Positions 3,660 through 58,332 of a stretch of DNA of 64,000 nucleotides are shown piece by piece. A program made the position numbers and the translations under genes. The notes beneath the pieces were generated by a model. It was given only the letters and a program-made list of their open reading frames with translations, searched no databases and was not told the DNA's origin. The stretch comes from Escherichia phage JM17: the sequence record PP400779; one strand, 5' to 3'. Position 1 is the first letter of the stretch. Every line of letters begins with the position of its first letter.

Positions 3660-3689
3660 GTTTACAACCAAGGATGGTTGGAGTATAAT
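3660..3689 (+). promoter_or_regulatory. T4-type early promoter (GTTTAC -35, TATAAT -10)
   Basis: gtttac at 3660-3665 and tataat at 3684-3689; the ATG at 3678 lies inside the promoter, so the downstream gene probably starts at 3720. Confidence 0.5.
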
Positions 3690-3719
3690 GAATCTATCTT
3701 AAACAAAGAGAGAAAAAAT

Positions 3720-4184
3720 ATGATTAATATTGGTGAAATTAAACGTGTATCGACAGCGTCTCGTTCTAAAGCTGCAGGAAAGCTGGTTGAAGTAGTAGGA
3801 CTTCGTACTAATGGCATGGGCCGTATTAAAGAAGTTAAAGTTCGAATCATTCCTAGTTCTGGAAAAACTGAAACTCAGTTCGCCTATGTAAGTCCTAAAT
3901 TCTTGGAAACTCGTGTACGTGTCCAATTTGCTTCAAGCGATATCGTTGAGCCTACTACACAGTTCAAATGGGCCCTTTGCAAAGGCGTTGAATTTATAAC
4001 CGATAAAGAATTTGATTACATCGACGAATACGGTTATCCAAGCAAAACTGATACTATGTGCGGCTTCATCAGCGACCAATGGGTTGAAGATGGTAAAAAG
4101 CTATACAATATTGTATTCTTAGGTGACTTCCGAGTTGTTGAAGAATCTGAAATCACTCGCTATGTGTCTCCTCGTAAAGCTTAA
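3720..4184 (+). CDS. hypothetical protein, tandem paralog A (dexA.1/dexA.2 position)
   Basis: ORF after the promoter; shares ASRSK.AGKLVEV, FKW.LC and GFISD.WVEDG.KLYNIVF blocks with the next ORF. Confidence 0.6.
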   Translation: MINIGEIKRVSTASRSKAAGKLVEVVGLRTNGMGRIKEVKVRIIPSSGKTETQFAYVSPKFLETRVRVQFASSDIVEPTTQFKWALCKGVEFITDKEFDYIDEYGYPSKTDTMCGFISDQWVEDGKKLYNIVFLGDFRVVEESEITRYVSPRKA

Positions 4185-4193
4185 GGAATTATT

Positions 4194-4613
4194 ATGAATA
4201 TTGCAAATCTCTCTATTGGTGATTATGTACACGTATCGGATGCTTCTCGCTCTAAAGTTGCTGGGAAGTTGGTTGAAGTTCTTTCTGTGAGTGATCCGGT
4301 TTTTGGACGTAACGAAGTTAAAGTTCGTGACTCCGATGGTAACATTGGTTACGTTAAAAGCCAATTCATTGAACCAGAAGAAAAAGCGTTCAAATGGGGA
4401 CTATGCAGATCAGTTTCTGTTGAAAAAGACCATGAATTCACTATTGCTGCGGCAACTGATGGAACACCGTGGAAAACTAAGCAAATCGCCGGATTTATTA
4501 GCGACCGTTGGGTAGAAGATGGTGTTAAGCTTTATAACATCGTTTTCGCTGGTCAGTTCATGGTAGTTCCTGAATTCCAAATTAAAAAATATAGCCCAGC
4601 TGCTTTCGCATAA
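4194..4613 (+). CDS. hypothetical protein, tandem paralog B
   Basis: 139-aa ORF, clear paralog of the 3720-4184 product. Confidence 0.6.
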   Translation: MNIANLSIGDYVHVSDASRSKVAGKLVEVLSVSDPVFGRNEVKVRDSDGNIGYVKSQFIEPEEKAFKWGLCRSVSVEKDHEFTIAAATDGTPWKTKQIAGFISDRWVEDGVKLYNIVFAGQFMVVPEFQIKKYSPAAFA

Positions 4614-4617
4614 AATT

Positions 4618-4646
4618 GTTTACTTCTCCTCTGGTTTTGATATTAT
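4618..4646 (+). promoter_or_regulatory. T4-type early promoter (GTTTAC -35, TATTAT -10)
   Basis: gtttac at 4618-4623, tattat at 4641-4646; flanked by an 11-bp perfect inverted repeat (4626-4636 / 4656-4666) whose downstream arm covers the GAGGAG ribosome-binding site. Confidence 0.5.
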
Positions 4647-4672
4647 AACCATATCAACCAGAGGAGAATAAT

Positions 4673-5197
4673 ATGTTAGTTTACCGCGTAGAACGTAGTT
4701 TTTGTACTCAACGTGAATCATTACCAGGAATTGCTATCGAAGACGGTAAAGCCGTCAGAATTTGGGAAACCTCTTGGAATAAAGAACCTCGCTCGCCATA
4801 CGGTTGGTCGGGCACCGACAACTCTGAAGAAACATGGGAGTTCCTTGATAAGCATGGAATACTCTCAGGTAACTTCTACCATCACGGCGACAACTATAAT
4901 GTCCCTAATCGTCCTACAGTAAATGAAGACAAACTCCTTGAACAAAATATCTTAAGATACTATAGAATTGAGCACGCATTTGAATTGAGTGAAGATTGGG
5001 CTCAAGGGTTCTATTTTGGATTTGAAAGTGTTGACGCGGTTTATGCATGGTTTGATGACCAGGTGGATGTTGAACTCTTGAAAGCTAAAGGATACTACAT
5101 CGCGGTCTATGAAGCACCTGATTTCATCCTCGGAAGTTGTCAATTAATGTTTAGACGTTCATTGGCAGAACAAGTTGATTTTATTTTGCTAAAATGA
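4673..5197 (+). CDS. hypothetical protein (motB position by synteny)
   Basis: 174-aa ORF with ribosome-binding site; position matches T4 motB but the sequence could not be verified from memory. Confidence 0.45.
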   Translation: MLVYRVERSFCTQRESLPGIAIEDGKAVRIWETSWNKEPRSPYGWSGTDNSEETWEFLDKHGILSGNFYHHGDNYNVPNRPTVNEDKLLEQNILRYYRIEHAFELSEDWAQGFYFGFESVDAVYAWFDDQVDVELLKAKGYYIAVYEAPDFILGSCQLMFRRSLAEQVDFILLK

Positions 5198-5226
5198 TGT
5201 ACAACAACTATGGTCTATGATACTAT
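5198..5226 (+). promoter_or_regulatory. early promoter candidate (TGTACA -35, TACTAT -10)
   Basis: 17-bp spacer; places the transcription start downstream of the ATG at 5210, favouring the 5255 start. Confidence 0.35.
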
Positions 5227-5254
5227 AGATCTATCAAAACAAGAGGAGAATATT

Positions 5255-5482
5255 ATGAAACGTCAAATCATTAAAAACGTAACTACTGATTCAAACATCG
5301 ATGAGTTTGAAGATGTTCTGTTTAATCCTGATTTAGTTGTTGTACAGAAAAACTGGACCGAATTTTTATGCTACACCGAAGTGGTTTACGTTTACGAAAA
5401 ACTCGGCGATGAAATGCCTATCTATGGTATCTTCCGTGAAATCACTGAAAATGGTACAACTTATTGGAAGGAAACTTACTAA
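5255..5482 (+). CDS. hypothetical protein (75 aa)
   Basis: ATG at 5255 preceded by GGAGAA; in-frame part of the 5210-5482 track ORF. Confidence 0.45.
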
Positions 5483-5892
5483 TGGCTAATAAATTCCGCG
5501 TTAACTCATGGTACCAATTTATAGATAAACGTGCCCAAGAAGAGTTTATTAAAGACCACACTGATAATGGGATTTATGCACGACGTCTTGGCATGGAACC
5601 ATTTAAAGTATTAGATGTTGACCATCTTGGACGTCCTACTAAAATTGTGACATCTGCTGGCACGGTTGGATATGCATCAGGCGGTGATATCCTTGATGAA
5701 AACTTTATCTGGCTTTCCACGAATGAAGCAGAGTTCTTTGACGAAGTTGAAAATCCGTATCAAGCGTCCGAAGAGCAAGATTCTGGTGAACTTGATGAAT
5801 TGTCTGAATTTCCGGCGATGACGATTACTATCGAAAATAACGACCAGGCATGGTCTTTGTATCAAATGTTGAAAGCACATTTTAAGGAATAA
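5482..5892 (+). CDS. hypothetical protein (136 aa; goF position by synteny)
   Basis: ATG overlaps the upstream stop (TAATG coupling); acidic C-terminal region. Confidence 0.5.
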
Positions 5893-5894
5893 TA

Positions 5895-6074
5895 ATGCCG
5901 TTATACGACTATAAATGCCAATCTGAAGATTGTGGACATGAATATGAAAAAATTAAAAGGATTTCTGAACGAGAAAACGATGTTTGCCCTGAATGTCATC
6001 GTCTGTCTACTCGTCGGGTTTCTGCTCCTAAACATGTGAACGGTGGTTTTTACGACTTACTTAAGAAGGGTTAA
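5895..6074 (+). CDS. small zinc-ribbon protein, FmdB-like (59 aa)
   Basis: Not in the ORF track (below 60 aa); translation MPLYDYKCQSEDCGHEYEKI...VCPECH has two Cys pairs in an FmdB-like arrangement; tightly packed between neighbours. Confidence 0.5.
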   Translation: MPLYDYKCQSEDCGHEYEKIKRISERENDVCPECHRLSTRRVSAPKHVNGGFYDLLKKG

Positions 6075-6076
6075 TT

Positions 6077-6502
6077 ATGGCTTTTAAAGGTTTTGAAGTT
6101 GGTAAGAAATATCGTATTATCAAAGGACAGGAAGATAATTTCTTGAGAATTCTTAATACGACTGGTAAACGTCTTAATACTAATCTGCATACTACTTTAT
6201 TGTCCAAAGATTTTATTGTGGAAGAGATGATTGGTTACGGTGTTTCGGTTATTGCTGTAGAAGCCGTAGGCGATTATGGCCGAACTATTCATAGTATGCA
6301 AGGTGATATTCTGCTTTATGGTGCAGAATTTAAATTCTTTGAAGAAGTTCCGGAACCAGATACAGCTGTCGATTTCAAAAAAGGCTCTATAGAATTTGTT
6401 GATGGTTCGGTGATCGTATCAGGCGATGTGGTCATTACAGTTAAAAGTGAACAAGGGCGTTTGGCTGCAATCGATACACTTCAGAAAATTAAATTTAAAT
6501 AA
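6077..6502 (+). CDS. hypothetical protein (141 aa)
   Basis: ORF followed directly by a terminator hairpin. Confidence 0.55.
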   Translation: MAFKGFEVGKKYRIIKGQEDNFLRILNTTGKRLNTNLHTTLLSKDFIVEEMIGYGVSVIAVEAVGDYGRTIHSMQGDILLYGAEFKFFEEVPEPDTAVDFKKGSIEFVDGSVIVSGDVVITVKSEQGRLAAIDTLQKIKFK

Positions 6503-6519
6503 GGGCTTCGGCCCTTTTT
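6503..6519 (+). terminator. intrinsic terminator (GGGC-UUCG-GCCC hairpin plus T5)
   Basis: gggcttcggccc followed by ttttt. Confidence 0.55.
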
Positions 6520-6543
6520 GCTTTAGATTTCGGATGATAGAAT
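6517..6543 (+). promoter_or_regulatory. candidate MotA-dependent middle promoter for gene 39
   Basis: MotA-box-like tttgcttta, 12-bp gap, then tagaat, about 25 bp upstream of the gene 39 start. Confidence 0.4.
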
Positions 6544-6565
6544 ACCTTCATAACGAGGAGACAAC

Positions 6566-8383
6566 ATGATTAAAAATGAAATTAAGGTATTGACAGATGT
6601 AGAACATATTAAGAAACGTAGTGGTATGTATATTGGTTCTTCGGCTAAAGAAGCACATGAGCGTTTTTTGTTTGGTAAATATCAACAAGTTGAATATGTT
6701 CCTGGTCTGGTTAAATTAATCGATGAGATTATTGACAACTCGGTTGATGAAGCTATTCGTACATCATTTAAGTTTGCAAATAAAATTGATGTGCAAATTA
6801 AAAATAATCAAGTTTCGGTGGAAGATAACGGACGCGGTATTCCTCAAGGTTTAGTTACTGACCAAACAGGTGAACAAATTCCTGGTCCTGTAGCGGCCTG
6901 GACTATTCCAAAGGCTGGTGGTAACTTTGGTGATGATTCTGAACGCAAGACTGGTGGTATGAACGGCGTCGGGAGTAGTTTAACTAATATCTTCTCTACG
7001 TTGTTTACAGGCATCACGTCAGATGGCGAAAACGAAATCACTGTTAACTGTTCAAACGGAATGGAAAACAAATCATGGTCTTCTAAGAAATCTAAAGGTA
7101 AAGGCACTAAAGTAATCTTCACTCCTGATTTCTCTTCATTTGAAGAGCATAATTTATCTCAAATTTATTTAGATATTACTTTAGACCGACTTCAAACATT
7201 GGCAGTCGTTTATCCTGATATCAAGTTCACATTTAATGGTAAAAAGGTTGATGGTAATTTTAAACGATTTGCTAAACAATTTGGTGAAGATAACATCATT
7301 CAAGAAAATGATAAAGTCTCTATAGCATTCACAACATCACCAGATGGCTTCCGTCATTTAACTTATGTGAATAACATCCATACTAAAAATGGTGGTCATC
7401 ATGTTGAATGCGTAATGGATGATATCTGCGAACATCTTTTGCCGGGTATTAAAAAGAAATATAAGGGTATTGAAGTCACTAAAGCTCGTGTTAAAGAATG
7501 CCTCACAATGTTGATGTTTATTAGAGACATGAGCAACATGCGTTTTGATTCTCAGACTAAAGAACGTTTAACGTCAACGTATGGTGATATTCGTAATCAT
7601 ATCCAATTAGATGCTAAGAAAATTGCTCAGGCACTTCTTAAAAACGAAGCCTTGATTATGCCTATTGTTGAAGCAGCATTAGCTCGTAAATTGGCAGCAG
7701 AAAAGGCTGCAGAAACTAAAGCAGCTAAAAAGGCAACTAAAGCTAAGGTTCATAAGCATATTAAAGCTAACCAATGTGGTAAAGATGCAGATACGACATT
7801 GTTTTTAACAGAAGGTGATTCGGCAATTGGTTATCTCATTGATGTTCGTGACCGTGAACTACACGGCGGATTCCCATTACGTGGTAAGGTGATGAATAGC
7901 TGGGGTATGTCATATGCTGATATGATGAAGAACAAAGAGCTCTTTGATATCTGTGCTATCACAGGTCTTATTCTTGGTGAAAAGGCAGAGAATACGAACT
8001 ATCGTAATATTGCAATTATGACCGATGCCGATCACGACGGTCTTGGAAGTATTTATCCTGCTTTGCTTGCTTTCTTTAGTAATTGGCCCGAATTGTTTGA
8101 ACAAGGACGTATTCGCTTTGTTAAAACACCTGTAATTATTGCACAAATTGGCAAAACTCAAAAATGGTTTTATACTGTAGCTGAGTATGAAGAAGTTAAA
8201 GATACACTGCCTAAGCATAGTATTCGATACATCAAGGGATTGGGCTCACTTCAGCGGGATGAATATAAAGAAATGATTCAAAACCCTGTGTACGACGTAG
8301 TTAAACTTCCTGAAAATTGGAAAGAACTCTTTGAAATGTTGTTGGGTGATGATTCAGAACTTCGTAAAGAATGGATGTCCTAA
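6566..8383 (+). CDS. 39: DNA topoisomerase II large subunit, unsplit gene 39 form (605 aa)
   Basis: N-terminus MIKNEIKVLTDVEHIKKRSGMYIGS and DNGRGIP ATPase motif match T4 gp39; the single ORF runs through the region that T4 encodes separately as gene 60. Confidence 0.92.
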   Translation: MIKNEIKVLTDVEHIKKRSGMYIGSSAKEAHERFLFGKYQQVEYVPGLVKLIDEIIDNSVDEAIRTSFKFANKIDVQIKNNQVSVEDNGRGIPQGLVTDQTGEQIPGPVAAWTIPKAGGNFGDDSERKTGGMNGVGSSLTNIFSTLFTGITSDGENEITVNCSNGMENKSWSSKKSKGKGTKVIFTPDFSSFEEHNLSQIYLDITLDRLQTLAVVYPDIKFTFNGKKVDGNFKRFAKQFGEDNIIQENDKVSIAFTTSPDGFRHLTYVNNIHTKNGGHHVECVMDDICEHLLPGIKKKYKGIEVTKARVKECLTMLMFIRDMSNMRFDSQTKERLTSTYGDIRNHIQLDAKKIAQALLKNEALIMPIVEAALARKLAAEKAAETKAAKKATKAKVHKHIKANQCGKDADTTLFLTEGDSAIGYLIDVRDRELHGGFPLRGKVMNSWGMSYADMMKNKELFDICAITGLILGEKAENTNYRNIAIMTDADHDGLGSIYPALLAFFSNWPELFEQGRIRFVKTPVIIAQIGKTQKWFYTVAEYEEVKDTLPKHSIRYIKGLGSLQRDEYKEMIQNPVYDVVKLPENWKELFEMLLGDDSELRKEWMS

Positions 8384-8406
8384 GCTCCTTCGGGAGCTTC
8401 ATTTTA
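8383..8406 (+). terminator. intrinsic terminator (UUCG hairpin plus T-run)
   Basis: gctccttcgggagc followed by ttcatttt just after the gene 39 stop. Confidence 0.5.
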
Positions 8407-8425
8407 ATTTTAATAAGGCTTAATT

Positions 8426-9526
8426 ATGAAAGTTATGTTTATCCCATCTCGCGCAGTCCCATTTAACCCAGAACGTGTACAAGGTGGTCTTGAAGCAGTA
8501 CATTTAAATGTGTTGAAATATCTTGTGTCCATCGGTGCTGATATTGATTATATCGGCTTTGATAATGACACGTTTGGTGACTGGAAGGTTAATCATCATC
8601 CTGTTGGTCATCTGACTAAATTCAGTCTAGGTATGAGTTATACTATGGCTCGTAAGATTGTTGAACTAGCCGGCATTAATGAGTACGATTTCGTTGTTAC
8701 AATGGAACCGACCAAACTAACCGTTCAGGCAATTAAAGACGCAGGTCTCTCTAAAGTTCATAAGAATTTTATGGCAACACCATTTGAACCAGTATCTCGT
8801 GGCATTGTTCAAATTTGGGACCAGACTATTCAAATTCGTAAGAATGGTGGTAAGAGTTATGCTCCTACTAAAGCCTTCCGTGAATTTGAACGCAAATATT
8901 GTTATATGACTTCAGGTCTGACTGACAAAATTGATTATGATTATTGGCGAGCAAATCCGTTGTTTGAAGCCGAAGATTATCCGGTTATTTGTTTGAATGA
9001 GAAACCTGAAGTTCTTCCGGCGACGGATCTGATTATTAGTGCACAACGTTATGACACTAAAATGCGTCGTACTGATGTTGCTCTTGAAGCGATTAAAGCA
9101 CTAGGCGAAAATGGTGTAGGATACTGTCCTAGTAAATGGGCACCACCGGCTAAGTATCCTGTTATTATTGATGCTCCACACAGTGAAATCATGGAACGTC
9201 TTAAAACAGCTAAAGCACTTATCAATACGTGTCCTGACACGGGTACGGTAGAGAATAGTTCTATTGAAGCCATCTCTAAAGGTGTCCCTGTGATTCAGTT
9301 AGTTTTTAAGGATTATCCGCACGCGACATTCGAATATGACCCAGATACTGTGCGTGTAGAAATTGATTCCTCTACTCCTAAGAAAGAAGTAGTTGCGCTT
9401 TACACAAAAGCTGTATTAGAATTCACTGACACATACGAAGCTCGAGTTAAACGTGCTGAAGCAGTATGGAAGAAGTATAATCGAGATGCAGTTGTTGCGA
9501 TGTGGGATAAAATCTTCACAGCGTAA
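8426..9526 (+). CDS. putative GT-B-fold glycosyltransferase (366 aa)
   Basis: C-terminal GTVENSSIEAISKGVPVI resembles the GT4-family E-x7-E sugar-donor motif; lies between gene 39 and rIIA. Confidence 0.5.
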   Translation: MKVMFIPSRAVPFNPERVQGGLEAVHLNVLKYLVSIGADIDYIGFDNDTFGDWKVNHHPVGHLTKFSLGMSYTMARKIVELAGINEYDFVVTMEPTKLTVQAIKDAGLSKVHKNFMATPFEPVSRGIVQIWDQTIQIRKNGGKSYAPTKAFREFERKYCYMTSGLTDKIDYDYWRANPLFEAEDYPVICLNEKPEVLPATDLIISAQRYDTKMRRTDVALEAIKALGENGVGYCPSKWAPPAKYPVIIDAPHSEIMERLKTAKALINTCPDTGTVENSSIEAISKGVPVIQLVFKDYPHATFEYDPDTVRVEIDSSTPKKEVVALYTKAVLEFTDTYEARVKRAEAVWKKYNRDAVVAMWDKIFTA

Positions 9527-13824: not shown

Positions 13825-13854
13825 GTTTACAACTAAGTAGGACTATGATATAGT
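13825..13854 (+). promoter_or_regulatory. T4-type early promoter (GTTTAC -35, TATAGT -10)
   Basis: 18-bp spacer; -10 flanked by 8-bp inverted repeat taggacta / tagtccta. Confidence 0.5.
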
Positions 13855-13880
13855 AGTCCTATCTAAAAGAGGATAACATC

Positions 13881-14336: not shown

Positions 14337-14366
14337 GTTTACATCACGGTAGGATTATGGTATAGT
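14337..14366 (+). promoter_or_regulatory. T4-type early promoter (GTTTAC -35, TATAGT -10)
   Basis: 18-bp spacer; near-duplicate of the 13825 promoter. Confidence 0.5.
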
Positions 14367-14394
14367 AGTCCTACTGAAACATGAGGAACACAAA

Positions 14395-14597: not shown

Positions 14598-14628
14598 TTG
14601 TACAAACTCTTGAGAGCAGAGTATAATG
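14598..14628 (+). promoter_or_regulatory. early promoter (TTGTACA -35, TATAAT -10)
   Basis: -10 flanked by inverted repeat gagagca / tgctctc; upstream of ndd. Confidence 0.45.
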
Positions 14629-14671
14629 CTCTCATGGATTACAAAAACATTAATCAATTGAGGAAATTAGC

Positions 14672-33598: not shown

Positions 33599-33627
33599 TG
33601 TACAATCAGATAGGGTTATGTTATAGT
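33598..33627 (+). promoter_or_regulatory. early promoter (GTGTAC -35, TATAGT -10)
   Basis: 18-bp spacer; -10 flanked by inverted repeat gataggg / ccctatc. Confidence 0.45.
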
Positions 33628-33662
33628 AGCCCTATCAAATCAAAAGTGAAGCGGAGAATAAA

Positions 33663-33913: not shown

Positions 33914-34501
33914 ATGCTTAAATTAGTATTCGCATGTGCTCCGTCTAAAACAGTCGATGATAAACTGGAATATGCTTTTGGATTAGGTGATGGACTACCA
34001 TGGAAGCATATCAAACAAGATATGAGTAACTTTGTTGCTCGCACTAAAAACACTGTAATGGTTATGGGTGCTAAGACATTTGCATCATTACCTCGTCTAC
34101 TCCCAGATCGTACTCATGTGGTTGTCACTGATATGGCCAGAAAACTGCCTAGGACTAAAACTGATGAACTTGCACGGTTCTATATCACACAAGCAGAATT
34201 TATTACCTTGGTAATGGGTGGTGAAATTAACCTGTTTAGCCCTGCAACTGACGTACCGTTTAAACTTTCTACTGAACATATTGATGTATCTGTTATTGGT
34301 GGTCCTGCTCTACTTAAACAAGCACTGCCTTATGCCGATGAAATCGTGATGACTAAAATCATTAAGAAATGTCGTGTTAATTCCGATGTTCAACTTGATA
34401 AAGATTTCGTCCAAGATATTATGCTTCAACGTTCTATGGTAGAATCTCATTACTACAGAATCGATGAACTCACCGAAATTACTGAGAGCGTATATAAATG
34501 A
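33914..34501 (+). CDS. frd: dihydrofolate reductase
   Basis: 195 aa; N-terminus MLKLVFACAPSKTVDDKLEYAFGLGDGLPW and VSVIGGPALL match T4 Frd. Confidence 0.92.
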   Translation: MLKLVFACAPSKTVDDKLEYAFGLGDGLPWKHIKQDMSNFVARTKNTVMVMGAKTFASLPRLLPDRTHVVVTDMARKLPRTKTDELARFYITQAEFITLVMGGEINLFSPATDVPFKLSTEHIDVSVIGGPALLKQALPYADEIVMTKIIKKCRVNSDVQLDKDFVQDIMLQRSMVESHYYRIDELTEITESVYK

Positions 34502-35046
34502 AACAATACCAATACCTGATTAAAGATATCTTAGAAAATGGCTACGAGACAGACGACCGTACAGGTACCGGCACTATTGCCCTGTTCGGAACTAAATTAC
34601 GTTGGGACCTTACTAAAGGATTTCCTGCAGTAACAACTAAGAAATTAGCATGGAAAGCTTGTATTGCCGAGTTACTGTGGTTCATGTCTGGTTCTACCAA
34701 TGTTAATGATTTGCGTATTCGTACTCATGGTAGTCTTATTCAAGGTAAAACTATTTGGGACGACAACTATGAAAATCAGGCAAAAGACCTTGGATATCAT
34801 AGCGGCGAACTTGGTCCTATTTATGGTAAGCAATGGCGTGATTTTGGTGGTGTAGACCAATTAGTTGAAACAATCGACCGTATTAAAAAATTACCAACTG
34901 ATCGTCGTCAAATTGTTTCTGCCTGGAATCCAGCTGAAATAAATCAAATGGCTCTTCCTCCTTGTCATATGTTCTATCAGTTCAATGTGCGTAATGGTCA
35001 TCTTGATTTACAATGGTATCAACGCAGTGTAGATGTTTTCTTGGGT
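34498..35046 (+). CDS. td: thymidylate synthase, exon 1
   Basis: Matches T4 TS residues 1-183, ending ...QRSVDVFLG; the in-frame stop directly after GGT is the first intron triplet. Confidence 0.93.
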
Positions 35047-36063
35047 TAATTTAGGCCTGGGTATAAGGTGACTTATACTTGTAATCTATCTAAACGGGGA
35101 ACCTCTCTAGTAGACAATCCCGTGCTAAATTGTAGGACTACCCTTTAATAAATACTTCTATATTTTAAAGAGGTGTTTATGAAAAGCGGAATTTATCAGA
35201 TTAAAAACACTTTAAATGGTAAAGTGTATGTTGGAAGTGCTAAAGATTTTGAGAAAAGATGGAAGAGACATTTTAAAGACCTTGAAAATGGTGTTCACTC
35301 TTCTATAAAATTTCAAAGGTCTTTTAATAAACATGGTAATGTTTTTGAATGCTCTATACTGGAAGAAATTCCATATGAGAAAGATTTGATTATTGAACGA
35401 GAAAATTTTTGGATTAACGAGTTAAATTCTAAAATTAATGGATATAATATTGCTGATGCGTCCTTTGGCGACACATTTTCAAATCACCCATTAAAGGAAG
35501 AAATTGCTAAGAAACGAGCTGAAACGGTTAAAGCTAAGATGCTTAAGCTTGGTCCTGATGGTCGAAAAGCCGTTTATGGTAAACCCGGAAGTGAAAACGG
35601 ACGATGGAATCCAGAAAACCACAAGTTTTGTAAATGTGGTGTTCGCATACCAACTTCAGCCAACACTTGTAGAAAGTGTCGAAAACGTTCAGGTGAAAAT
35701 AATCCATTCTTTAATCATAAACATTCAGAAAAAACTAAAACTAAACTATCAGAAAAGATGAAAGGTAAAAAGCCATCTAACATCAAAAAGATTTCATGTG
35801 ATGGTATTATTTTTGAATGTGCAGCTGATGCGGCCAGACATTTTGAAATTTCATCTGGATTAGTTACTTACCGTGTAAAATCTGATAAGTGGAATTGGTT
35901 CTACATAAATGCCTAACGACTATCCCTTTAGGGAGTAGGGTCAAGTGACTCGAAACGATAGACAACTTGCTTTAACAAGTTGGAGATATAGTCTGCTCTG
36001 CATGGTGACATGCAGCTGGATATAATTCCGGGATAAGATTAACGACCTTATCTGAACATAATG
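35047..36063 (+). mobile_element. td group I self-splicing intron (1017 bp)
   Basis: 5' end taattt...ggcctgggtataaggtgacttatac and 3' end ...ctgaacataatg match the T4 td intron; the TS frame resumes at 36064. Confidence 0.9.
35179..35916 (+). CDS. intron-encoded GIY-YIG homing endonuclease I-TevI
   Basis: 245 aa from the ATG at 35179; MKSGIYQIKNTLNGKVYVGSAKDFEKRWKRHF matches T4 I-TevI. Confidence 0.93.
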   Translation: MKSGIYQIKNTLNGKVYVGSAKDFEKRWKRHFKDLENGVHSSIKFQRSFNKHGNVFECSILEEIPYEKDLIIERENFWINELNSKINGYNIADASFGDTFSNHPLKEEIAKKRAETVKAKMLKLGPDGRKAVYGKPGSENGRWNPENHKFCKCGVRIPTSANTCRKCRKRSGENNPFFNHKHSEKTKTKLSEKMKGKKPSNIKKISCDGIIFECAADAARHFEISSGLVTYRVKSDKWNWFYINA

Positions 36064-36375
36064 CTACCGTTCAACATTGCCTCGTACGCTGCCTTGACGC
36101 ATATTGTAGCGAAGATGTGTAACCTTATCCCAGGTGATTTAGTGTTCTCAGGTGGCAATACGCATATCTACAGCAATCATGTAGAACAATGCAAAGAAGT
36201 TCTTCGTCGTGAACCTAAAGAGTTATGTTCTCTTGAAATTAATTGGCCTAGTAATTTTGAGAATTGGCCTACAAAAATCCAAATGGACTGGGTTACTGGA
36301 ACAATGACACATTCTGATTTCGTTCTTAAAAATTACGAATCACATCCAGCTATCAAAGCTAAAATGGCGGTATAA
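36064..36375 (+). CDS. td: thymidylate synthase, exon 2
   Basis: Begins LPFNIASYA...; exon 1 plus exon 2 gives 286 aa, as in T4 TS. Confidence 0.93.
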   Translation, partial: LPFNIASYAALTHIVAKMCNLIPGDLVFSGGNTHIYSNHVEQCKEVLRREPKELCSLEINWPSNFENWPTKIQMDWVTGTMTHSDFVLKNYESHPAIKAKMAV

Positions 36376-36718: not shown

Positions 36719-38143
36719 ATGCAAGTAACTAAGAGCAGTGGTGTATCCCAAAATTTTGATGCACAGAAAATTATTCAAGTCTTAACTTGGCAATGTGAAG
36801 GAACACAAATTGATCCATATGAATTGTACGAAGAAATTAAGACCCATCTTGTCGACGGGATGAGCACCAAAGATATCCAGAAGATTTGTATTAAAGTTGC
36901 AGCTAACTCGATTTCTGTCGAAGAACCTGATTATCAGTATGTCGCCGCCAAAGGGCTAATGTTTGCACTTCGTAAAGATGTATATGGGCAGTTTGAACCG
37001 CCTGCTTTTATCGACCATATTTCTTACTGTGTTAATGAAGGCAAATATGACCCTGAGCTGTTGTCTCAATATTCAGCAGAAGAAATCATTTATCTCGATT
37101 CACAGATTAAACATGAACGAGACTTTGACCTGACTTACGCTGGTGCTATGCAGCTTAAAGAAAAATATCTAGTTAAAGATAAAACAACTGGGAAGATTTA
37201 TGAAACTCCACAGTTTGCTATCATGGCTATTGGCATGGCCTTACATCAAGACGAAACTCATGACCGTTTGAAACATATTATTCGTTTTTATGACGCCGTT
37301 TCTACTCATCAAGTTTCATTGCCTACTCCAATTATGGCAGGTGCTCGTACTCCAACTCGCCAGTTCTCTAGTTGTGTAGTTATTGAAGCCGGTGATTCGT
37401 TAAAATCTATTAACAAAACTTCAGCATCAATTATTGAATATATTTCTAAACGAGCTGGTATTGGTATCAACGTTGGTATGCTTCGTGCAGAAGGTTCTAA
37501 GATCGGTATGGGTGAAGTTCGACATACGGGTGTTATTCCATTCTGGAAACATTTCCAAACTGCAGTAAAATCTTGTTCTCAAGGTGGTATTCGTGGTGGT
37601 GCTGCTACAGCGTATTATCCGATGTGGCACTTAGAAGTAGAGAACCTATTAGTTCTGAAAAATAACAAAGGCGTGGATGAAAACCGTATTCGACATATGG
37701 ACTACGGAATTCAGATTAATGACCTTATGATGGAACGCCTTGGTAAAAATGATTATATTACTTTATTTAGCCCTCACGAAATGTCAGGCGAACTATACTA
37801 CTCGTTCTTTGAAGATCAAGATAAATTCCGTGAGCTTTATGAGAAAGCTGAAAAAGACCCAACAATCAGAAAGAAAAGAATCAAAGCACTAGAACTCTTT
37901 GAATTGTTCATGACTGAACGTTCTGGCACCGCTCGAATTTATCCGCAATTCGTTGATAACACGAACAACTACACTCCATTTATTCGTGAAAAAGCTCCAA
38001 TTCGTCAGAGTAACTTATGTTGTGAAATCGCTATTCCAACTAATGATGTGAATGGGCAACAAACCCGTTTAATCAAAATTAAGAAGTCGGATGTAGCTAA
38101 GTTTTATGAAGCTAATCCTGGCGGTATAATTCAAAGCAAATAA
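36719..38143 (+). CDS. nrdA: ribonucleotide reductase alpha subunit, N-terminal fragment (NrdA-a)
   Basis: 474 aa; class Ia NrdA through the active-site loop SNLCCEIAIPTNDVN, then a 28-aa non-homologous tail and a stop. Confidence 0.9.
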   Translation: MQVTKSSGVSQNFDAQKIIQVLTWQCEGTQIDPYELYEEIKTHLVDGMSTKDIQKICIKVAANSISVEEPDYQYVAAKGLMFALRKDVYGQFEPPAFIDHISYCVNEGKYDPELLSQYSAEEIIYLDSQIKHERDFDLTYAGAMQLKEKYLVKDKTTGKIYETPQFAIMAIGMALHQDETHDRLKHIIRFYDAVSTHQVSLPTPIMAGARTPTRQFSSCVVIEAGDSLKSINKTSASIIEYISKRAGIGINVGMLRAEGSKIGMGEVRHTGVIPFWKHFQTAVKSCSQGGIRGGAATAYYPMWHLEVENLLVLKNNKGVDENRIRHMDYGIQINDLMMERLGKNDYITLFSPHEMSGELYYSFFEDQDKFRELYEKAEKDPTIRKKRIKALELFELFMTERSGTARIYPQFVDNTNNYTPFIREKAPIRQSNLCCEIAIPTNDVNGQQTRLIKIKKSDVAKFYEANPGGIIQSK

Positions 38144-38188
38144 AGTACACAGACCGTTAATAAATAATCCATAACAAGAGGAAAAGTT

Positions 38189-38899
38189 ATGGATTATTCT
38201 AAAATTTACAATAACCTTATTTCTAAAGCTAAGAACAGAAAATTAGATTGCTATACCGAATCACACCATATTATACCTCTGTGTATTGGTGGTTCTGATA
38301 CAAAGGAAAACCTGGTAGATTTGACACCAGAAGAGCATTACATAGCTCATCAATTATTAGTAAAGATATATCCAGATAATCATAAATTGATATTTGCCGC
38401 TAATATGATGTGTGTTTATTCTGAAGATAATATTGAACGAAAGAACACCAATAAACGCCATGGGTGGCTTAGAAGAAAATTGGCTATTTCTGTATCTGAA
38501 AATAATAAAGGCAAACCAGCTTGGAACAAAGGTATTCCTATGTCTCCAGAAGTTAAATCTCGACTTCAAACATCTTGGGTGTTTACATTTCCGGATGGTC
38601 ATGAGGAAATTCATCGAGGTCTTAACGAATTTTGTAAAGAGCATAATTTAAATCCATCTGCAATGTCAGCCGTTTGTAAAGGTAAACGGGCGCATCACAA
38701 AGGATTTAAGTGTAAGAAATTGGATAAGATTTCGGAGCTTGATAATTTAGTTTTCGTCAGTAAACCTCATCCAAAGGGATTAAAACCCCATAACTTAATT
38801 GCTGTAAAAATAAACGGTATAGAATATCAATCAATACAACGAGCATCTAAAGCTTTAGGAATTACTAGAAAAAAGGTAGAAGAATTAAATGAATATTGA
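38189..38899 (+). CDS. HNH homing endonuclease (Mob-like) inserted within nrdA
   Basis: 236 aa; HNH motif ESHHIIPLCIGGSDTKENLVDLTPEEH; own ribosome-binding site; its end overlaps the start of the NrdA-b ORF. Confidence 0.85.
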   Translation: MDYSKIYNNLISKAKNRKLDCYTESHHIIPLCIGGSDTKENLVDLTPEEHYIAHQLLVKIYPDNHKLIFAANMMCVYSEDNIERKNTNKRHGWLRRKLAISVSENNKGKPAWNKGIPMSPEVKSRLQTSWVFTFPDGHEEIHRGLNEFCKEHNLNPSAMSAVCKGKRAHHKGFKCKKLDKISELDNLVFVSKPHPKGLKPHNLIAVKINGIEYQSIQRASKALGITRKKVEELNEY

Positions 38900-39878
38900 T
38901 TATGAATTTGTAGATGAATTTTACGAAGATGATGAGTATACTACAATAAAAGTTATTGAAAACAAGGGAGAAGTGGGGCTTTGTACTCTCTCTGCTTTTG
39001 TATTAGATAAATTTGATTGGCAAGACCAAGATAAAATTAATGAACTTGCTGAAGTACAAGTACGTGCACTTGATAACCTGTTAGACTATCAAGATTATCC
39101 GGTTCCAGAAGCTTTAAAAGCCAAAAAGCGTCGTAATCTTGGTGTTGGTGTTACGAACTATGCTGCATGGTTAGCTTCTAACTTCGCTTCATATGAAGAC
39201 GCTAACGATTTGACTCATGAATTGTTTGAGAGATTGCAATATGGCCTTATCAAAGCTTCAATCAAACTCGCCAAAGAAAAAGGATGTTGCGAGTATTATT
39301 CAGACACTAAATGGTCTAGAGGCGAATTACCTATCGACTGGTACAATAAAAAGATTGACCAAATCGCAGCCCCGAACTACGTATGTGATTGGGAAGAACT
39401 TCGAGCTGAACTCAAAGAACATGGAATTCGTAACTCAACGTTGTCTGCACTCATGCCTTGTGAGTCAAGCAGTCAAGTATCAAACTCTACAAACGGGATT
39501 GAACCGCCGCGTGGTCCAGTGAGTATTAAAGAATCTAAAGAAGGCAACTTCCGTCAGGTTGTTCCTAATATAGAACATAACATGGGTCTTTACGACTACG
39601 CGTGGAAACTTGCTAAGAAAGGTAATAAACCTTATTTGACCCAAGTTGCTATCATGTTGAAATGGGTGTGCCAATCTGCTTCTGCTAATACTTACTATGA
39701 CCCTGCAGTATTTGAGAAAGGTAAAGTGCCAATGTCAGTAATGCTTGACGATCTGCTTTACTTCTGGTACTTTGGCGGAAAAAACCTCTACTATCATAAC
39801 ACTCGTGATGGGTCAGGTACAGATGACTATGAATTAGAAACACCTAAAGCTGAAGATTGTTCTGCTTGTAAGCTTTAA
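38889..39878 (+). CDS. nrdA: ribonucleotide reductase alpha subunit, C-terminal fragment (NrdA-b)
   Basis: 329 aa; about 27-aa novel N-terminus, then GEVGLCTLSAFVLDKF... continuing NrdA homology to a C-terminal CxxC tail. Confidence 0.9.
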   Translation: MNIDYEFVDEFYEDDEYTTIKVIENKGEVGLCTLSAFVLDKFDWQDQDKINELAEVQVRALDNLLDYQDYPVPEALKAKKRRNLGVGVTNYAAWLASNFASYEDANDLTHELFERLQYGLIKASIKLAKEKGCCEYYSDTKWSRGELPIDWYNKKIDQIAAPNYVCDWEELRAELKEHGIRNSTLSALMPCESSSQVSNSTNGIEPPRGPVSIKESKEGNFRQVVPNIEHNMGLYDYAWKLAKKGNKPYLTQVAIMLKWVCQSASANTYYDPAVFEKGKVPMSVMLDDLLYFWYFGGKNLYYHNTRDGSGTDDYELETPKAEDCSACKL

Positions 39879-39933
39879 GACTTTTGATTATAATTTACTC
39901 ATGGATGAGTTAATAACTAAGTGAGAAAATATA

Positions 39934-40609
39934 ATGAGTACAGTTTTTAACACACAACAAGTCGATGTTTTGAATGAACCAATGTTCTTTGGTTCTGGTC
40001 TTGGCCTAGCACGTTATGATATTCAGCGACATAAAGTTTTTGAAGAACTTATTGAAAAGCAATTGTCGTTTTTCTGGCGCCCAGAAGAGGTAAACTTGAT
40101 GTTGGACTCTGCGCAGTTCAATAAGCTTCCTCAGTTCCAACAGGACATCTTTACAAACAATCTTAAGTATCAATCATTATTAGATTCTATCCAAGGCAGG
40201 GCCCCATCTGCGGTACTTATGGCACTGATTTCCGACCCTTCATTAGATACGTGGGTTGCAACATGGACATTCAGTGAAACTATTCACTCTCGTTCGTACA
40301 CTCATATTATGCGAAATCTTTATACCGATCCATCCAAAGTATTTGATGAGATTGTATTAGACGAAGCAATCATGAAACGAGCTGAATCAATAGGTAAATA
40401 TTACGATGATGTTCTGGTTAAAACTCGTTATTGGGAAAACGCTAAAGAATTTGTAGAACAAGCTAAAGAATCTCCTGATGCCGACCTTCGTTTAAACCGA
40501 GCTATTAAACAAGAGACCGAAGCTAAACGAGACCTAATGAAATCTCTTTATCTTTGTTTGCATGTCATCAATGCATTGGAAGCTATTCGTTTTTATGTAT
40601 CTTTTGCGT
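39934..40609 (+). CDS. nrdB: ribonucleotide reductase beta subunit, exon 1
   Basis: NrdB N-terminal homology to ...LEAIRFYVSFA; exon boundary inferred (exon ends at a U, followed by a stop in the intron). Confidence 0.88.
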
Positions 40610-41705
40610 AAAATGCGCCTTTAAACGGTAACGTTTATCGAAAACTCCTTTAATTGCTGGAAAGTCCTTTATAGGAAAACTAGCAGCCAAGGTTTTGCTT
40701 GCACCTTTAATTAGTATATTATAAAATAAATATGATTATACTTTTAAGAGGATGCACAATTGAATTATAGAAAAATTTGGATAGATGCTAACGGACCTAT
40801 ACCTAAAGATTCTGATGGAAGAACATACGAAATCCATCATAAAGACGGTAACCGTGAAAATAATGATTTAGATAATTTGATGTGCCTTTCTATACAGGAA
40901 CATTATGATATACATTTAGCTCAAAAAGATTACCAGGCTTGTCATGCTATAAAGCTTAGAATGAAATATTCTCCTGAAGAAATTTCTGAATTAGCTTCTA
41001 AAGCCGCAAAATCTAGAGAAATCCAGATTTTTAATATCCCTGAAGTACGAGCTAAAAATATTGCCTCTATTAAATCTAAGATAGAAAATGGTACATTTCA
41101 TCTTTTAGACGGTGAAATACAGCGTAAATCTAATTTAAATAGAGTTGCATTAGGTATACATAATTTTCAACAAGCTGAGCATATTGCAAAAGTTAAAGAA
41201 CGCAATATTGCAGCTATAAAAGAAGGTACTCATGTATTTTGCGGTGGTAAAATGCAGTCAGAAACTCAATCAAAACGGGTAAATGACGGTTCACATCATT
41301 TCTTGTCAGAAGACCATAAGAAAAGAACATCAGCAAAAACATTAGAAATGGTTAAGAACGGAACCCATCCTGCACAAAAAGAAATCACATGTGATTTCTG
41401 CGGTCACATTGGTAAAGGTCCTGGATTTTATCTAAAACATAATGACAGATGTAAATTAAATCCAAATAGAATTCAATTGAATTGTCCATATTGTGATAAG
41501 AAAGATTTATCACCATCAACATATAAACGATGGCACGGCGACAATTGCAAAGCAAGGTTCAACGACTAGTCTTCGGACGTAGGGTCAAGCGACTCGAAAT
41601 GGGGAGAATCCCTCTGGGATTGTGATATAGTCTGGTCTGCATAGTAATATGTAGCAGTTCATAAGAGAACGGGTTGAGAATTAGCGAGCTCAATCGAACA
41701 TAACG
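40610..41705 (+). mobile_element. nrdB group I intron (about 1.1 kb; boundaries inferred)
   Basis: NrdB homology is interrupted for about 1.1 kb; 3' end ...cgaacataacg parallels the td intron 3' end; contains the I-TevIII ORF. Confidence 0.8.
40760..41569 (+). CDS. intron-encoded homing endonuclease I-TevIII, full length
   Basis: 269 aa; N-terminal HNH-type motif (YEIHHKDGNRENNDLDNL) plus C-terminal Cys-rich zinc-finger region; the track start at 40760 is a TTG codon. Confidence 0.8.
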   Translation: MNYRKIWIDANGPIPKDSDGRTYEIHHKDGNRENNDLDNLMCLSIQEHYDIHLAQKDYQACHAIKLRMKYSPEEISELASKAAKSREIQIFNIPEVRAKNIASIKSKIENGTFHLLDGEIQRKSNLNRVALGIHNFQQAEHIAKVKERNIAAIKEGTHVFCGGKMQSETQSKRVNDGSHHFLSEDHKKRTSAKTLEMVKNGTHPAQKEITCDFCGHIGKGPGFYLKHNDRCKLNPNRIQLNCPYCDKKDLSPSTYKRWHGDNCKARFND

Positions 41706-42208
41706 GTACCTTTAACTTCCATAAGAACATGGAAATTATGGAAGGTAATGCAAAGATTATGAAGTTCATTGCTCGTGACGAACAACTCCATCTCAAGGGT
41801 ACTCAGTACATTATCCGTCAACTTCAATCTGGTACTGATGGCGATGAGTGGGTTCAAATTGCTAAAGAATGTGAACAAGAAGCAGTTGACATTTTTATGG
41901 AAGTAAATCGTCAAGAGAAGGAATGGGCTGCACACCTCTTTAAAGACGGTACATGTCCAGGTATCAATACGCAGAGTATGTGTGCTTTTGTTGATTACTT
42001 GACTGTGTCTCGTATGAAACAGTGTGGTTTGCCATGCCCAATCACTGATGCTCCGACCAAGCATCCGTATCCTTGGATTCGTGAATATCTTAACTCTGAT
42101 TTAGTTCAAGCAGCTCCTCAGGAAGTTGAAATCAGTTCTTATCTTGTTGCACAAATTGATAATGATGTGGACCAAAATGTAATCAATTCATACAAAAAAT
42201 ATTTCTAA
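41706..42208 (+). CDS. nrdB: ribonucleotide reductase beta subunit, exon 2
   Basis: Resumes ...MEGNAKIMKFIARDEQLHLKGTQ... to the NrdB C-terminus; exon 1 plus exon 2 gives about 392 aa. Confidence 0.85.
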
Positions 42209-42645: not shown

Positions 42646-42674
42646 TTTACATACCACAAGGATTGTGGTACAAT
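42645..42674 (+). promoter_or_regulatory. T4-type early promoter (GTTTAC -35, TACAAT -10)
   Basis: 18-bp spacer containing inverted repeat accacaa / ttgtggt. Confidence 0.5.
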
Positions 42675-43827: not shown

Positions 43828-43857
43828 GTTTACAAACACCAAGGATGGTGATACTAT
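43828..43857 (+). promoter_or_regulatory. T4-type early promoter (GTTTAC -35, TACTAT -10)
   Basis: 18-bp spacer; overlaps the upstream ATG at 43845, so the downstream gene probably starts at 43887. Confidence 0.5.
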
Positions 43858-45233: not shown

Positions 45234-45262
45234 TTTACAAACTCTTGGGAGCAGAGTATAAT
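45233..45262 (+). promoter_or_regulatory. T4-type early promoter (GTTTAC -35, TATAAT -10)
   Basis: 18-bp spacer; near-duplicate of the 14598 promoter. Confidence 0.5.
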
Positions 45263-45290
45263 GCTCCTATGGATAATTGAGGAAATCTAA

Positions 45291-47358: not shown

Positions 47359-47388
47359 GTTTACAACATGGTGGAGTTGTGATACTAT
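47359..47388 (+). promoter_or_regulatory. T4-type early promoter (GTTTAC -35, TACTAT -10)
   Basis: 18-bp spacer. Confidence 0.5.
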
Positions 47389-47416
47389 AACTCTACCAAC
47401 AAATGAGGAAATAGAA

Positions 47417-51385: not shown

Positions 51386-51414
51386 GTTTACTTTGGTACA
51401 GGTTATGTTATTAT
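51386..51414 (+). promoter_or_regulatory. T4-type early promoter (GTTTAC -35, TATTAT -10)
   Basis: 17-bp spacer; -10 flanked by inverted repeat acaggt / acctgt. Confidence 0.5.
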
Positions 51415-51455
51415 AGACCTGTATCAACAAACAACTTAAACATCTGGAGAATAAA

Positions 51456-52471: not shown

Positions 52472-52501
52472 TGTACATCCAAGGACGGATTAGAGTATAA
52501 T
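52471..52501 (+). promoter_or_regulatory. early promoter (GTGTAC -35, TATAAT -10)
   Basis: 19-bp spacer. Confidence 0.4.
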
Positions 52502-53382: not shown

Positions 53383-54143
53383 AGCCTACTATTTTGACTG
53401 ATATTGATGGTGTATGTTTAAGCTGGCAATCTGGACTTCCTTATTTTGCCCAAAAATATAACCTTCCATTAGAACATATTTTAAAAATGATTCAGGACGA
53501 AAAATTTATTTCTCCTGGTAAACTGTTCAATACCGACGATAACCTTGGTAAACAATTAATAGAAAAATATAATAGCTCTGATTTTATTCGTTACTTAGCG
53601 CCTTATTCTGATGCTCTTCGAGTTATCAATAAACTAAAAGAAGACTATAATTTTGTAGCCGTGACGGCGCTAGGTGATTCAATTGATGCTCGATTGAATA
53701 GACAATTTAATTTGAATGCTTTGTTCCCAGGCGCTTTCTCTGAAGTAATGATGTGTGGTCATGATTCTTCAAAGGAACAATTATTCGAACTAGCTAAAAC
53801 AAAATATAACGTAATTTGTTACGTTGACGATTTAGCTCATCATTGTGACCATGCGGCAGAAATTCTTAATGTACCGATTTATTGGTTGGCTCGTGGTGAA
53901 CGTGATGCCATTCCTCGTACTGCACAACGTGTACACACGTGGGATGATATTGAATCTCGTTTGGTTCCACCTGAGCATAATTCAGATTCAGATCGTGAAG
54001 ACCTTTTAAAACGATTGGCGGATTTGCTTAAAGAATCTGGTGCAACAAGTCCAGGTGCATGGCCTAATCAAATTGGTGGCCCCTCGACAACACGTACTCC
54101 ATATACCTGGCGAACCACAGGACCAACTGATATGCAGCCGTAG
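53379..54143 (+). CDS. HAD-superfamily hydrolase-like protein
   Basis: 254 aa; N-terminal motif I ILTDIDGV (D-x-D-x-V); coupled to the NADAR ORF. Confidence 0.4.
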   Translation: MKPTILTDIDGVCLSWQSGLPYFAQKYNLPLEHILKMIQDEKFISPGKLFNTDDNLGKQLIEKYNSSDFIRYLAPYSDALRVINKLKEDYNFVAVTALGDSIDARLNRQFNLNALFPGAFSEVMMCGHDSSKEQLFELAKTKYNVICYVDDLAHHCDHAAEILNVPIYWLARGERDAIPRTAQRVHTWDDIESRLVPPEHNSDSDREDLLKRLADLLKESGATSPGAWPNQIGGPSTTRTPYTWRTTGPTDMQP

Positions 54144-58303: not shown

Positions 58304-58332
58304 TTTACAAACACATGGATGTGTGATACTAT
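58303..58332 (+). promoter_or_regulatory. T4-type early promoter (GTTTAC -35, TACTAT -10)
   Basis: 18-bp spacer. Confidence 0.5.

Follow-up and report, generated by a model that had tools for sequence, protein, structure and literature searches.

A hairpin enclosing the early motB.2 promoter of Escherichia phage JM17 is predicted to mask the motB.2 ribosome-binding site in read-through RNA

T4-type phages carry dozens of strong early promoters in tandem and few terminators. How small early genes escape being driven by all of the promoters upstream of them is, to our knowledge, poorly understood. The region in front of motB.2 in Escherichia phage JM17 poses this question in a concrete form: an inverted repeat encloses the core of an early promoter, and one of its arms contains the ribosome-binding site (RBS) of the gene. 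A preliminary description of the 64,000-nucleotide stretch of DNA analysed here (sequence record PP400779; hereafter the window) had proposed that transcripts reading through from upstream fold a hairpin that hides this RBS, that transcripts started at the local promoter carry one arm only, and that promoter choice may in this way set translatability, at motB.2 and possibly at three similar repeats elsewhere. Does this notion withstand closer analysis, and how far does it reach beyond a single gene?

Positions 4000-9000 of the window are 97-99% identical to about 145 genomes of Mosigvirus, the RB69 group of T4-type phages. According to the annotation of PhAPEC2, the early genes lie on the + strand, in the order dexA, motB-family genes, motB.2 (ORF 4673-5197), cef, goF, gp39, rIIA, rIIB, denB, ndd and onward. 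A pattern for T4 early promoters ([GTC]T[TG]TAC, N16-19, TA[TCG][ATG][AG]T) matches the 64-kb window 23 times on the + strand versus 4 times on the - strand; 19 matches are intergenic with an SD and ATG downstream, and a 20th early promoter, at 5198, escaped the pattern. This specificity for strand and intergenic space is a property of the T4-early pattern only, as a generic sigma70 scan of the window found 58 matches versus 64 expected in shuffles, and hence no enrichment. For several of the early promoters, the RB69 orthologue was predicted by Nolan et al. (2006), who noted a preference for C at -3 to -1 in RB69. The early promoters of the window also have in common a GGA at about -22 and, over the predicted +1 (the A of CCTATC), a CCTATCAAC-like motif, for example at 13855-13866, 33630-33640 and 4649-4658.

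The motB.2 promoter (4618..4646, + strand), a sigma70-type early promoter recognized from its sequence and by pattern scans, consists of the -35 element GTTTAC (4618-4623), a 17-nt spacer and the -10 element TATTAT (4641-4646). Its RB69 orthologue is the predicted promoter Pe:7443, located directly 5' of RB69 motB.2 at 6852-7373 (Nolan 2006). A rule of 7 nt past the -10, together with Nolan's alignment, puts the predicted +1 at A4653. The 5' arm TTCTCCTCTGGTT (4624..4636, + strand) starts directly after the -35 and constitutes an anti-SD sequence that would be present in upstream-initiated transcripts only; the 3' arm AACCAGAGGAGAA (4656..4668, + strand) would lie in the 20-nt leader of the local transcript and contains, as had been noted, the SD GAGGAG at 4661-4666. 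By published target rules, the 3' arm also carries a RegB-type GGAG, followed by an A-rich tail (PMC1702504, PMC3014915). The arms had been described as a perfect 11-bp repeat (4626-4636/4656-4666) flanking the -10. The repeat is real and does flank the -10, but it is longer, with 13 perfect base pairs (4624-4636/4656-4668) closing a 19-nt loop that holds both the -10 and the predicted +1. Perfect dyads of at least 13 bp with a loop of 3-22 nt occur twice in the window versus 0.00 times in 30 dinucleotide shuffles. Downstream of the hairpin follows the motB.2 homologue itself (4673..5197, + strand; 174 aa, assigned from the PhAPEC2 and RB69 annotation), whose RBS would be masked and in which a Pfam scan found no domain. 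Upstream lies a co-directional motB-family gene (4194..4613, + strand) with its own promoter at 3660 and the stop codon TAA at 4611-4613; since no terminator separates this gene from the hairpin, it is the presumable source of read-through RNA.

Folding predictions are consistent with the proposed masking at this site. Read-through RNA (4560-4720) folds with -35.7 kcal/mol (z = -3.1), and its centroid structure comprises essentially just the 4624-4668 hairpin (-24 kcal/mol), in which the SD at 4661-4666 is fully paired, as it is in the minimum free energy structure. The predicted local transcript, which starts between the arms and would thus retain one of them, folds no better than its shuffles (z = +0.3). 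A search of the whole window against Rfam returned no family at gathering score, and near motB.2 just a chance match to a snoRNA (E = 0.98); the late promoter motif TATAAATA is absent from 4600-4672. The upstream stop codon is located 11 nt before the 5' arm, and ribosomes terminating there could briefly open the stem.

Is this arrangement maintained in other phages? An SD-sequestering motB.2 hairpin is also found in Tequatrovirus, Dhakavirus, Kanagawavirus and Mosugukvirus (-15 to -29 kcal/mol), and the layout is the same in all five genera, with the anti-SD in or next to the promoter and the SD in the 3' arm, built from stems that are different and compensated. T4 and other members of Tequatrovirus have GTTTAC-TTCCTCGGT...ACTGAGGA and an inner helix of 9 bp, three of which are G·U pairs (-21 to -28 kcal/mol), and the stem in Dhakavirus is TTCTCCTCATG/CATGAGGAGAA. 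In Kanagawavirus and Mosugukvirus the 5' arm begins inside the -10, so that the predicted start falls within the 5' arm, whereas elsewhere it falls in the loop. Stem polymorphisms inside genera run from G-C to G·U to A-U. The motB.2 leaders were compared fold by fold rather than by a formal pair count, MAFFT having misaligned the Tequatrovirus 5' arm, and the five-genus comparison came from a protein alignment; a scan of IMG/VR with the MotB.2 protein alone yielded 3 near-identical loci.

The remaining promoter hairpins fall into two classes: those of class A wrap the -10, and those of class B are small spacer hairpins centred on the GGA. The three other dyads around a -10 that had been listed alongside motB.2 do exist (13838-45/13854-61 and 14611-18/14627-34, 8 bp each, and 33609-15/33630-36, 7 bp or, with G·U, 11 bp), the earlier coordinates being off by 1-3 nt at most, and at least five hairpin sites had been missed (5212-5231, 14347-14376, 45246-45269, 47369-47398 and 51393-51427). 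All are on the + strand. The class A hairpin in the promoter after denB (13837..13862; core TAGGACTA/TAGTCCTA; -13.2 kcal/mol, top 3%) has a 3' arm that ends at the predicted +1, and the SD at 13869-74 is free. Further members of this class are located at the promoters of ndd.1 (14347..14376; CGGTAGGATTAT/GTAGTCCTACTG with G·U pairs, -16.1 kcal/mol), ndd (14611..14634; TGAGAGCA/TGCTCTCA with the loop GAGTATAA) and frd.1 (33609..33636; GATAGGGTTAT/GTAGCCCTATC, -16.3 kcal/mol), at 45246..45269 (TGGGAGCA/TGCTCCTA, a paralogue of 14611-34), at 47369..47398 (TGGTGGAGTTGTG/TATAACTCTACCA, 13 pairs, -16.9 kcal/mol, z = -3.3) and at 51393..51427 (core TACAGGT/ACCTGTA, -15.3 kcal/mol). The cef promoter (5198..5231; TGTACA 5198-5203, TACTAT 5221-5226), whose RB69 counterpart is Pe:6863, has GGTCTAT (5212-5218) and ATAGATC (5225-5231) around its -10, with one G·U pair in the window that is a G-C pair in PhAPEC2. 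Class B is best exemplified by 42652..42670 (TACCACAA gga TTGTGGTA, + strand); its other members, at 3666-3679, 43837-43850, 52477-52490 and 58311-58324 on the same strand, are none of them individually significant. The class B flanks vary yet stay complementary (AACCA/TGGTT, CACCA/TGGTG, ATCC/GGAT, ACACA/TGTGT and TACCACA/TGTGGTA). At the promoter downstream of denB, T4-like and Dhakavirus phages have a class B hairpin and Mosigvirus has one that wraps the -10.

The masking logic does not carry over to the class A hairpins. At 13837-62, 14611-34, 33609-36 and related sites the 3' arm extends to about the predicted +1, so that local transcripts would contain neither arm, and hiding of the RBS is inapplicable there. 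At the three sites to which it had been extended (13838-61, 14612-33 and 33612-37), the hairpin is followed at a distance of 7-35 nt by the SD, which the centroid folds leave unpaired. The suggestion that promoter choice sets translatability thus holds, in silico, at motB.2, where five genera share the layout, and does not extend to the three other sites. Nor do the hairpins resemble canonical terminators: a search for a U-tract after the promoter hairpins found none (the 3' arms are followed by AUAAUAUG, CUAAAAG, UGGAUUAC and CAAAUCAA), and a terminator scan calls none of them on the + strand. The lack of a U-tract makes canonical intrinsic termination unlikely, and the candidate reading as intrinsic terminators was rejected on this ground.

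T4 shows the same hairpin classes, plus SD-sequestering cases at nrdC.9 and modB; further SD-sequestering cases are found near denB in T4-like and Dhakavirus contigs. The T4 promoters concerned (AF158101) have their -35 at 53943, 13186, 57990 and 20612. The SD-sequestering hairpin of the nrdC.9 promoter is GTTCCTCTGTGGT...ACTACGGAGGAAC (-19.4 kcal/mol), and the mobD.2 and dmd promoters have 15-bp hairpins wrapping the -10 (-20 and -22 kcal/mol).

The second and only other perfect 13-bp inverted repeat of the window, 38163-38198 (AATAATCCATAAC aagaggaaaa GTTATGGATTATT, -13.8 kcal/mol), belongs to a different setting. It spans the start of a free-standing homing-endonuclease ORF (38189-38899, with an I-HmuI NUMOD-like domain), the SD of which lies in the loop and the AUG (38189) of which lies in the 3' arm. 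Phage homing endonucleases are known to be translationally down-regulated, and the layout matches this. The ORF splits nrdA, which is intact in PhAPEC2, into two pieces: 36719-38143, with the ATP-cone, the N-terminal domain and positions 1-221 of the barrel profile, and 38889-39878, with barrel positions 219-523. The split resembles a case reportedly described by Friedrich et al. in 2007 as 'genes in pieces', mobE/nrdA of Aeromonas phage Aeh1. Intron-like inserts in td and downstream of nrdA-b (34498-36375 and 39879-41728) contain the ORFs 35173-35916, 39934-40611 and 40760-41569; Rfam found no group I intron in the whole window at gathering threshold.

Is the pairing at the promoters selected, or would any sequence of this composition show it? 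Dyads of at least 8 bp number 30 in the window versus 23 expected from shuffles. Since dyads of 7-8 bp are barely above shuffles, dyad length alone is not evidence, and tests were anchored on promoters instead. When the sequence between the -35 and a point 24 nt beyond the -10 was folded and compared with 3000 random genomic 48-mers, a hairpin enclosing the -10 ranked in the top 3% of stability at 8 of the 19 intergenic early promoters versus 0.6 expected (binomial 4e-8). These eight (4618, 13825, 14337, 14598, 33598, 45233, 47359 and 51386) have hairpins of -13 to -24 kcal/mol; five of the other 11 have a short class B spacer hairpin, and six lack any hairpin. In a set of 34 unselected promoters, 19 from the window and 15 from T4, at least 7 consecutive in-register pairs are present at 10, versus 1.6 when 3' halves are swapped between promoters, and 0 of 5000 swaps reach 10. 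Among 16 class A promoters from five genera, which were chosen beforehand for having a hairpin, 91.7% of the cells are paired versus 74% after shuffling, double changes occur in 10 of 12 pairs, and the signal is lost once partners are shifted by 1-3 columns. That 74% still pair in shuffles indicates that promoter symmetry is partly due to the common consensus (GGA near -22, CCTATC at +1). Related copies have diverged in keeping with pairing: A-U has become G-C and G-C has become G·U between the paralogues 14611-34 and 45246-69, and the PhAPEC2 and window orthologues at 5212-31, 47369-98 and 51393-427 differ by compensatory or wobble changes.

Two further properties of the class A hairpins bear on the level at which they might act. 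In 7 of 7, stability favours the sense strand over the antisense strand by 2-9 kcal/mol, an excess caused by G·U pairs, and such a bias indicates a structure in RNA, or in the non-template strand of DNA, rather than a duplex palindrome. All of them are, moreover, in the same register, with the -12/-11 step of the -10 at the centre, for which the simple explanation is that the arms are built around an immutable TGnTATA core. Genomic context offers a further hint. In the window, strong hairpins are found at 8 of 13 promoters that abut a co-directional stop codon versus 0 of 6 with a canonical UUCG terminator, a divergently oriented gene or a long gap in front of them. For window and T4 together, the count is 12 of 20 stop-abutting promoters without a terminator versus 3 of 14 elsewhere (Fisher p = 0.029). 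A class A hairpin is absent from all six promoters that are preceded by a terminator. The link to stop-codon context is modest (p = 0.03) and has exceptions, since sp and srd of T4 are without a hairpin and mobD.2 and motB of T4 have one despite a distance of 59-75 nt to the upstream stop. Strong hairpins at stop-abutting promoters fit an RNA-level role on read-through, such as attenuation, a 3'-end barrier or insulation, as has been proposed for the promoter-early stem-loops (PeSLs) discussed below.

How else might these observations be explained? The symmetry might be a product of chance or of the promoter consensus, with the spacer GGA facing the TCC at +1 and pairing itself unselected. Such an account could draw on the near-shuffle frequency of 7-8 bp dyads across the window, on the 74% of cells that pair even with swapped partners and on the 6 of 19 promoters that have no hairpin. 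It is hardly credible, however, in the face of the partner swap (10 versus 1.6 expected, 0 of 5000 swaps), of 8 of 19 promoters ranking in the top 3% of stability, of a perfect 13-bp dyad that no shuffle produced, and of changes between paralogues, orthologues and genera that are compensatory or preserve wobble pairs; a pure consensus by-product was rejected by the partner-swap test. A dyad that works as DNA, either as an operator bound by a protein dimer or by forming a cruciform or a non-template-strand hairpin that modulates promoter opening, would fit the single register of the class A dyads, centred on -12/-11, and a non-template DNA hairpin would suit the sense-strand bias, too. We nevertheless hold it to be very improbable. 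The stems are wholly different in sequence between promoters and offer no common protein site, for which reason a common operator was rejected; a G·T pair is an A·C mismatch on the other strand, which speaks against a duplex palindrome or a symmetric cruciform; the fixed register already follows from arms placed around the immutable TGnTATA core; and the 19-nt loop at motB.2 is unfavourable for cruciform extrusion.

Alternatively, all hairpins, that of motB.2 included, may serve as transcriptional attenuators or terminators for the upstream gene, the overlap with the SD being incidental. One RB49 PeSL stem-loop cut expression of a downstream lacZ as strongly as rrnB T1 (PMC2839356), and within the window -10-wrapping hairpins and canonical UUCG terminators never occur at the same promoter. 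A lacZ assay, however, cannot tell termination from effects on translation or stability, and no hairpin is followed by a U-tract or called as a + strand terminator. Moreover, the SD stays within the stem in all five genera despite replacement of the remaining stem, which is hardly incidental, and on balance we regard pure attenuation as unlikely. It has also to be considered that recombination is the selected function, such that patches of promoter-plus-stem homology shuffle small genes (the PeSL mini-circles) and pairing has no regulatory meaning. PhAPEC2 has an extra gene and promoter between dexA and the motB genes where the window has a single hybrid promoter, the promoter repeats hit 4-5 places per genome in BLAST, and the PeSL papers document such exchanges (PMC2839356, PMC4122927). 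But homologous recombination needs similarity between copies and not intramolecular complementarity, and it leaves the compensatory changes, the sense-strand G·U bias and the SD pairing across genera unexplained. As the selected function, recombination appears distinctly improbable; it is compatible with an RNA-level function and hence not a true alternative to one.

What, then, might these elements do? We consider it fairly probable that they are PeSL-type composites of an early promoter with a stem-loop, in which class A hairpins act on read-through and the motB.2 hairpin gates translation. We envision that one intergenic space of 55-75 nt accommodates both a strong sigma70 early promoter and an RNA stem-loop, the hairpin being encoded in the only positions that the promoter leaves free, namely the spacer and the stretch from the -10 to the +1. 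We infer that the hairpin would form in vivo only in RNA that is read through from the upstream gene, because local transcripts are predicted to begin at or past the 3' arm. In most copies, which are of class A and leave the downstream RBS free, it would most likely act as an attenuator, a 3'-end barrier or an insulator replacing a canonical terminator. The motB.2 element (4624-4668) would represent a specialised version, with the anti-SD just past the -35, the -10 and the +1 in the loop, and the SD as the 3' arm. In read-through mRNA, motB.2 would be translationally silent and, as RNA structure inhibits RegB and RegB cuts the T4 motB.2 SD in vivo, also shielded from this GGAG-specific nuclease; the local transcript with its 20-nt leader would be accessible to ribosomes and RegB alike. 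MotB.2 synthesis would in this manner be tied to the firing of its own immediate-early promoter. The motB.2 promoter and the nearest upstream promoter (3660) are both early, which makes a gain from telling their transcripts apart less than obvious.

It is conceivable, if rather doubtful, that a subset of immediate-early genes of the Tevenvirinae carries an anti-SD in its own sigma70 promoter spacer as a general 'early-only' translational gate. Judged by their sequences, candidate cases would be motB.2 in the five genera, nrdC.9 and modB of T4, and those near denB in T4-like and Dhakavirus contigs. If this were true, promoter-proximal transcripts alone would be translatable and RegB-sensitive, and the abundant transcripts from read-through and middle-mode extension would remain silent, mirroring the lysozyme gene with its late-only gate. 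Promoter-embedded hairpins would then supply tandem early units with post-transcriptional insulation, a role beyond that of terminators or recombination patches. Should the hairpins insulate units and gate motB.2, nrdC.9 and modB, this would explain how expression remains specific to each gene and limited to the first minutes of infection, how RegB targets are chosen and why the cassettes lend themselves to shuffling as self-contained units. A corollary is that whoever moves or deletes a gene with 'its promoter' would displace half of a regulatory hairpin as well, which matters for annotation and for the engineering of therapeutic T4-like phages.

How do these elements relate to known systems? 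The general feature, which the preliminary description had not identified with any published element, corresponds to the PeSLs of RB49/phi1 (with GGGG...CCCC stems), T4/PST and KVP40/nt-1 (Arbiol et al. 2010, PMC2839356; Comeau et al. 2014, PMC4122927). In these papers, the stem is located 'most commonly between the -35 and -10 or overlapping the -10' (PMC2839356), the proposed roles are attenuation or termination of upstream transcription and recombinational shuffling (PMC2839356, PMC4122927), the T4/PST figure draws stems just 5' of the promoter, and the RB69 group is not among the phages described. The window resembles these elements in combining an early promoter and its A-rich upstream region with a stem-loop, in many copies and with cassette indels. 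Specifically, strong sigma70-like early promoters (-35, 17±1 nt, -10) with an A-rich upstream region lie between a stop codon and an SD/ATG, and a stable stem-loop is found in or over the promoter in 8 of 19 cases (-13 to -24 kcal/mol), in addition to five small spacer hairpins. The six promoters without a hairpin parallel the 'degraded' PeSLs of the published papers. Repeated copies coincide with cassette indels: the window and PhAPEC2 differ by one gene-plus-promoter cassette, which in PhAPEC2 lies between dexA and the motB genes and comprises an extra gene of 164 aa and a second copy of the promoter. Window positions 3663-3707 match both PhAPEC2 copies (locus 614-658 and 1171-1215), which places the indel junction inside the promoter, as in the PeSL shuffling model. 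In the accessible parts of the PeSL papers (PMC2839356, PMC4122927), we came across neither the -12/-11 register nor the sense-strand G·U bias, nor SD sequestration.

T4-type intrinsic terminators, with their GC stem, UUCG loop and U-tract, are likewise stem-loops located directly after a gene. The promoter hairpins differ from them in having no U-tract, more A-U and G·U pairs and loops of 6-19 nt, and do not qualify as terminators of this type. RegB provides another point of reference. Its targets consist of GGAG/U and A-rich 3' sequence in early SDs, and cleavage is inhibited by secondary structure (PMC1702504, PMC3014915); the T4 motB.2 SD belongs to the few GGAU sites that RegB cleaves in vivo (PMC1702504), and according to Durand et al. 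the enzyme can cut structured sites in vivo, possibly in nascent RNA. The 3' arm GAGGAGAAUAAUAUG fits the rule of 'GGAG followed by A-rich' sequence, and RegB of the RB69 group may cut there; RegB sites are defined by sequence and not, like the element described here, by a hairpin. For motB.2 and the T4 promoter 'P8.1', a literature search found the RegB paper and Hinton's review alone; by map position alone, P8.1 is presumably the motB.2 promoter.

The closest precedent for masking of the RBS is the one in T4 to which the preliminary description had rightly appealed. The genes e, soc, 49 and I-TevI each have an internal promoter along with a hairpin that masks the RBS (McPheeters et al.; PMC3014915, section 29): in long transcripts the SD/AUG is held in a helix, and transcripts from the internal promoter lack the 5' strand of the helix and are translated (PMC3014915). 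The predicted layout at 4624-4668 is the same, and among the promoter hairpins of the window it is only here that the SD lies in an arm and is predicted to be paired. The two differ in the internal promoter, which is late in the T4 genes (TATAAATA, gp55) and an early sigma70 promoter at motB.2 (GTTTAC-17-TATTAT), and thus not one of a later class. A late internal promoter delays translation of e, soc, 49 and I-TevI to late infection, whereas the early one at motB.2 would restrict translation to the earliest transcripts. The published list of RBS-masking genes (e, soc, 49 and I-TevI) does not include motB.2, which the T4 genome review may mention. The promoter hairpins are thus real and non-random and belong to an element class already published as PeSL. 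Within this class, the motB.2 hairpin is a well-conserved new example of a promoter enclosed by a putative RBS-masking hairpin, unusual in that the promoter is an early one.
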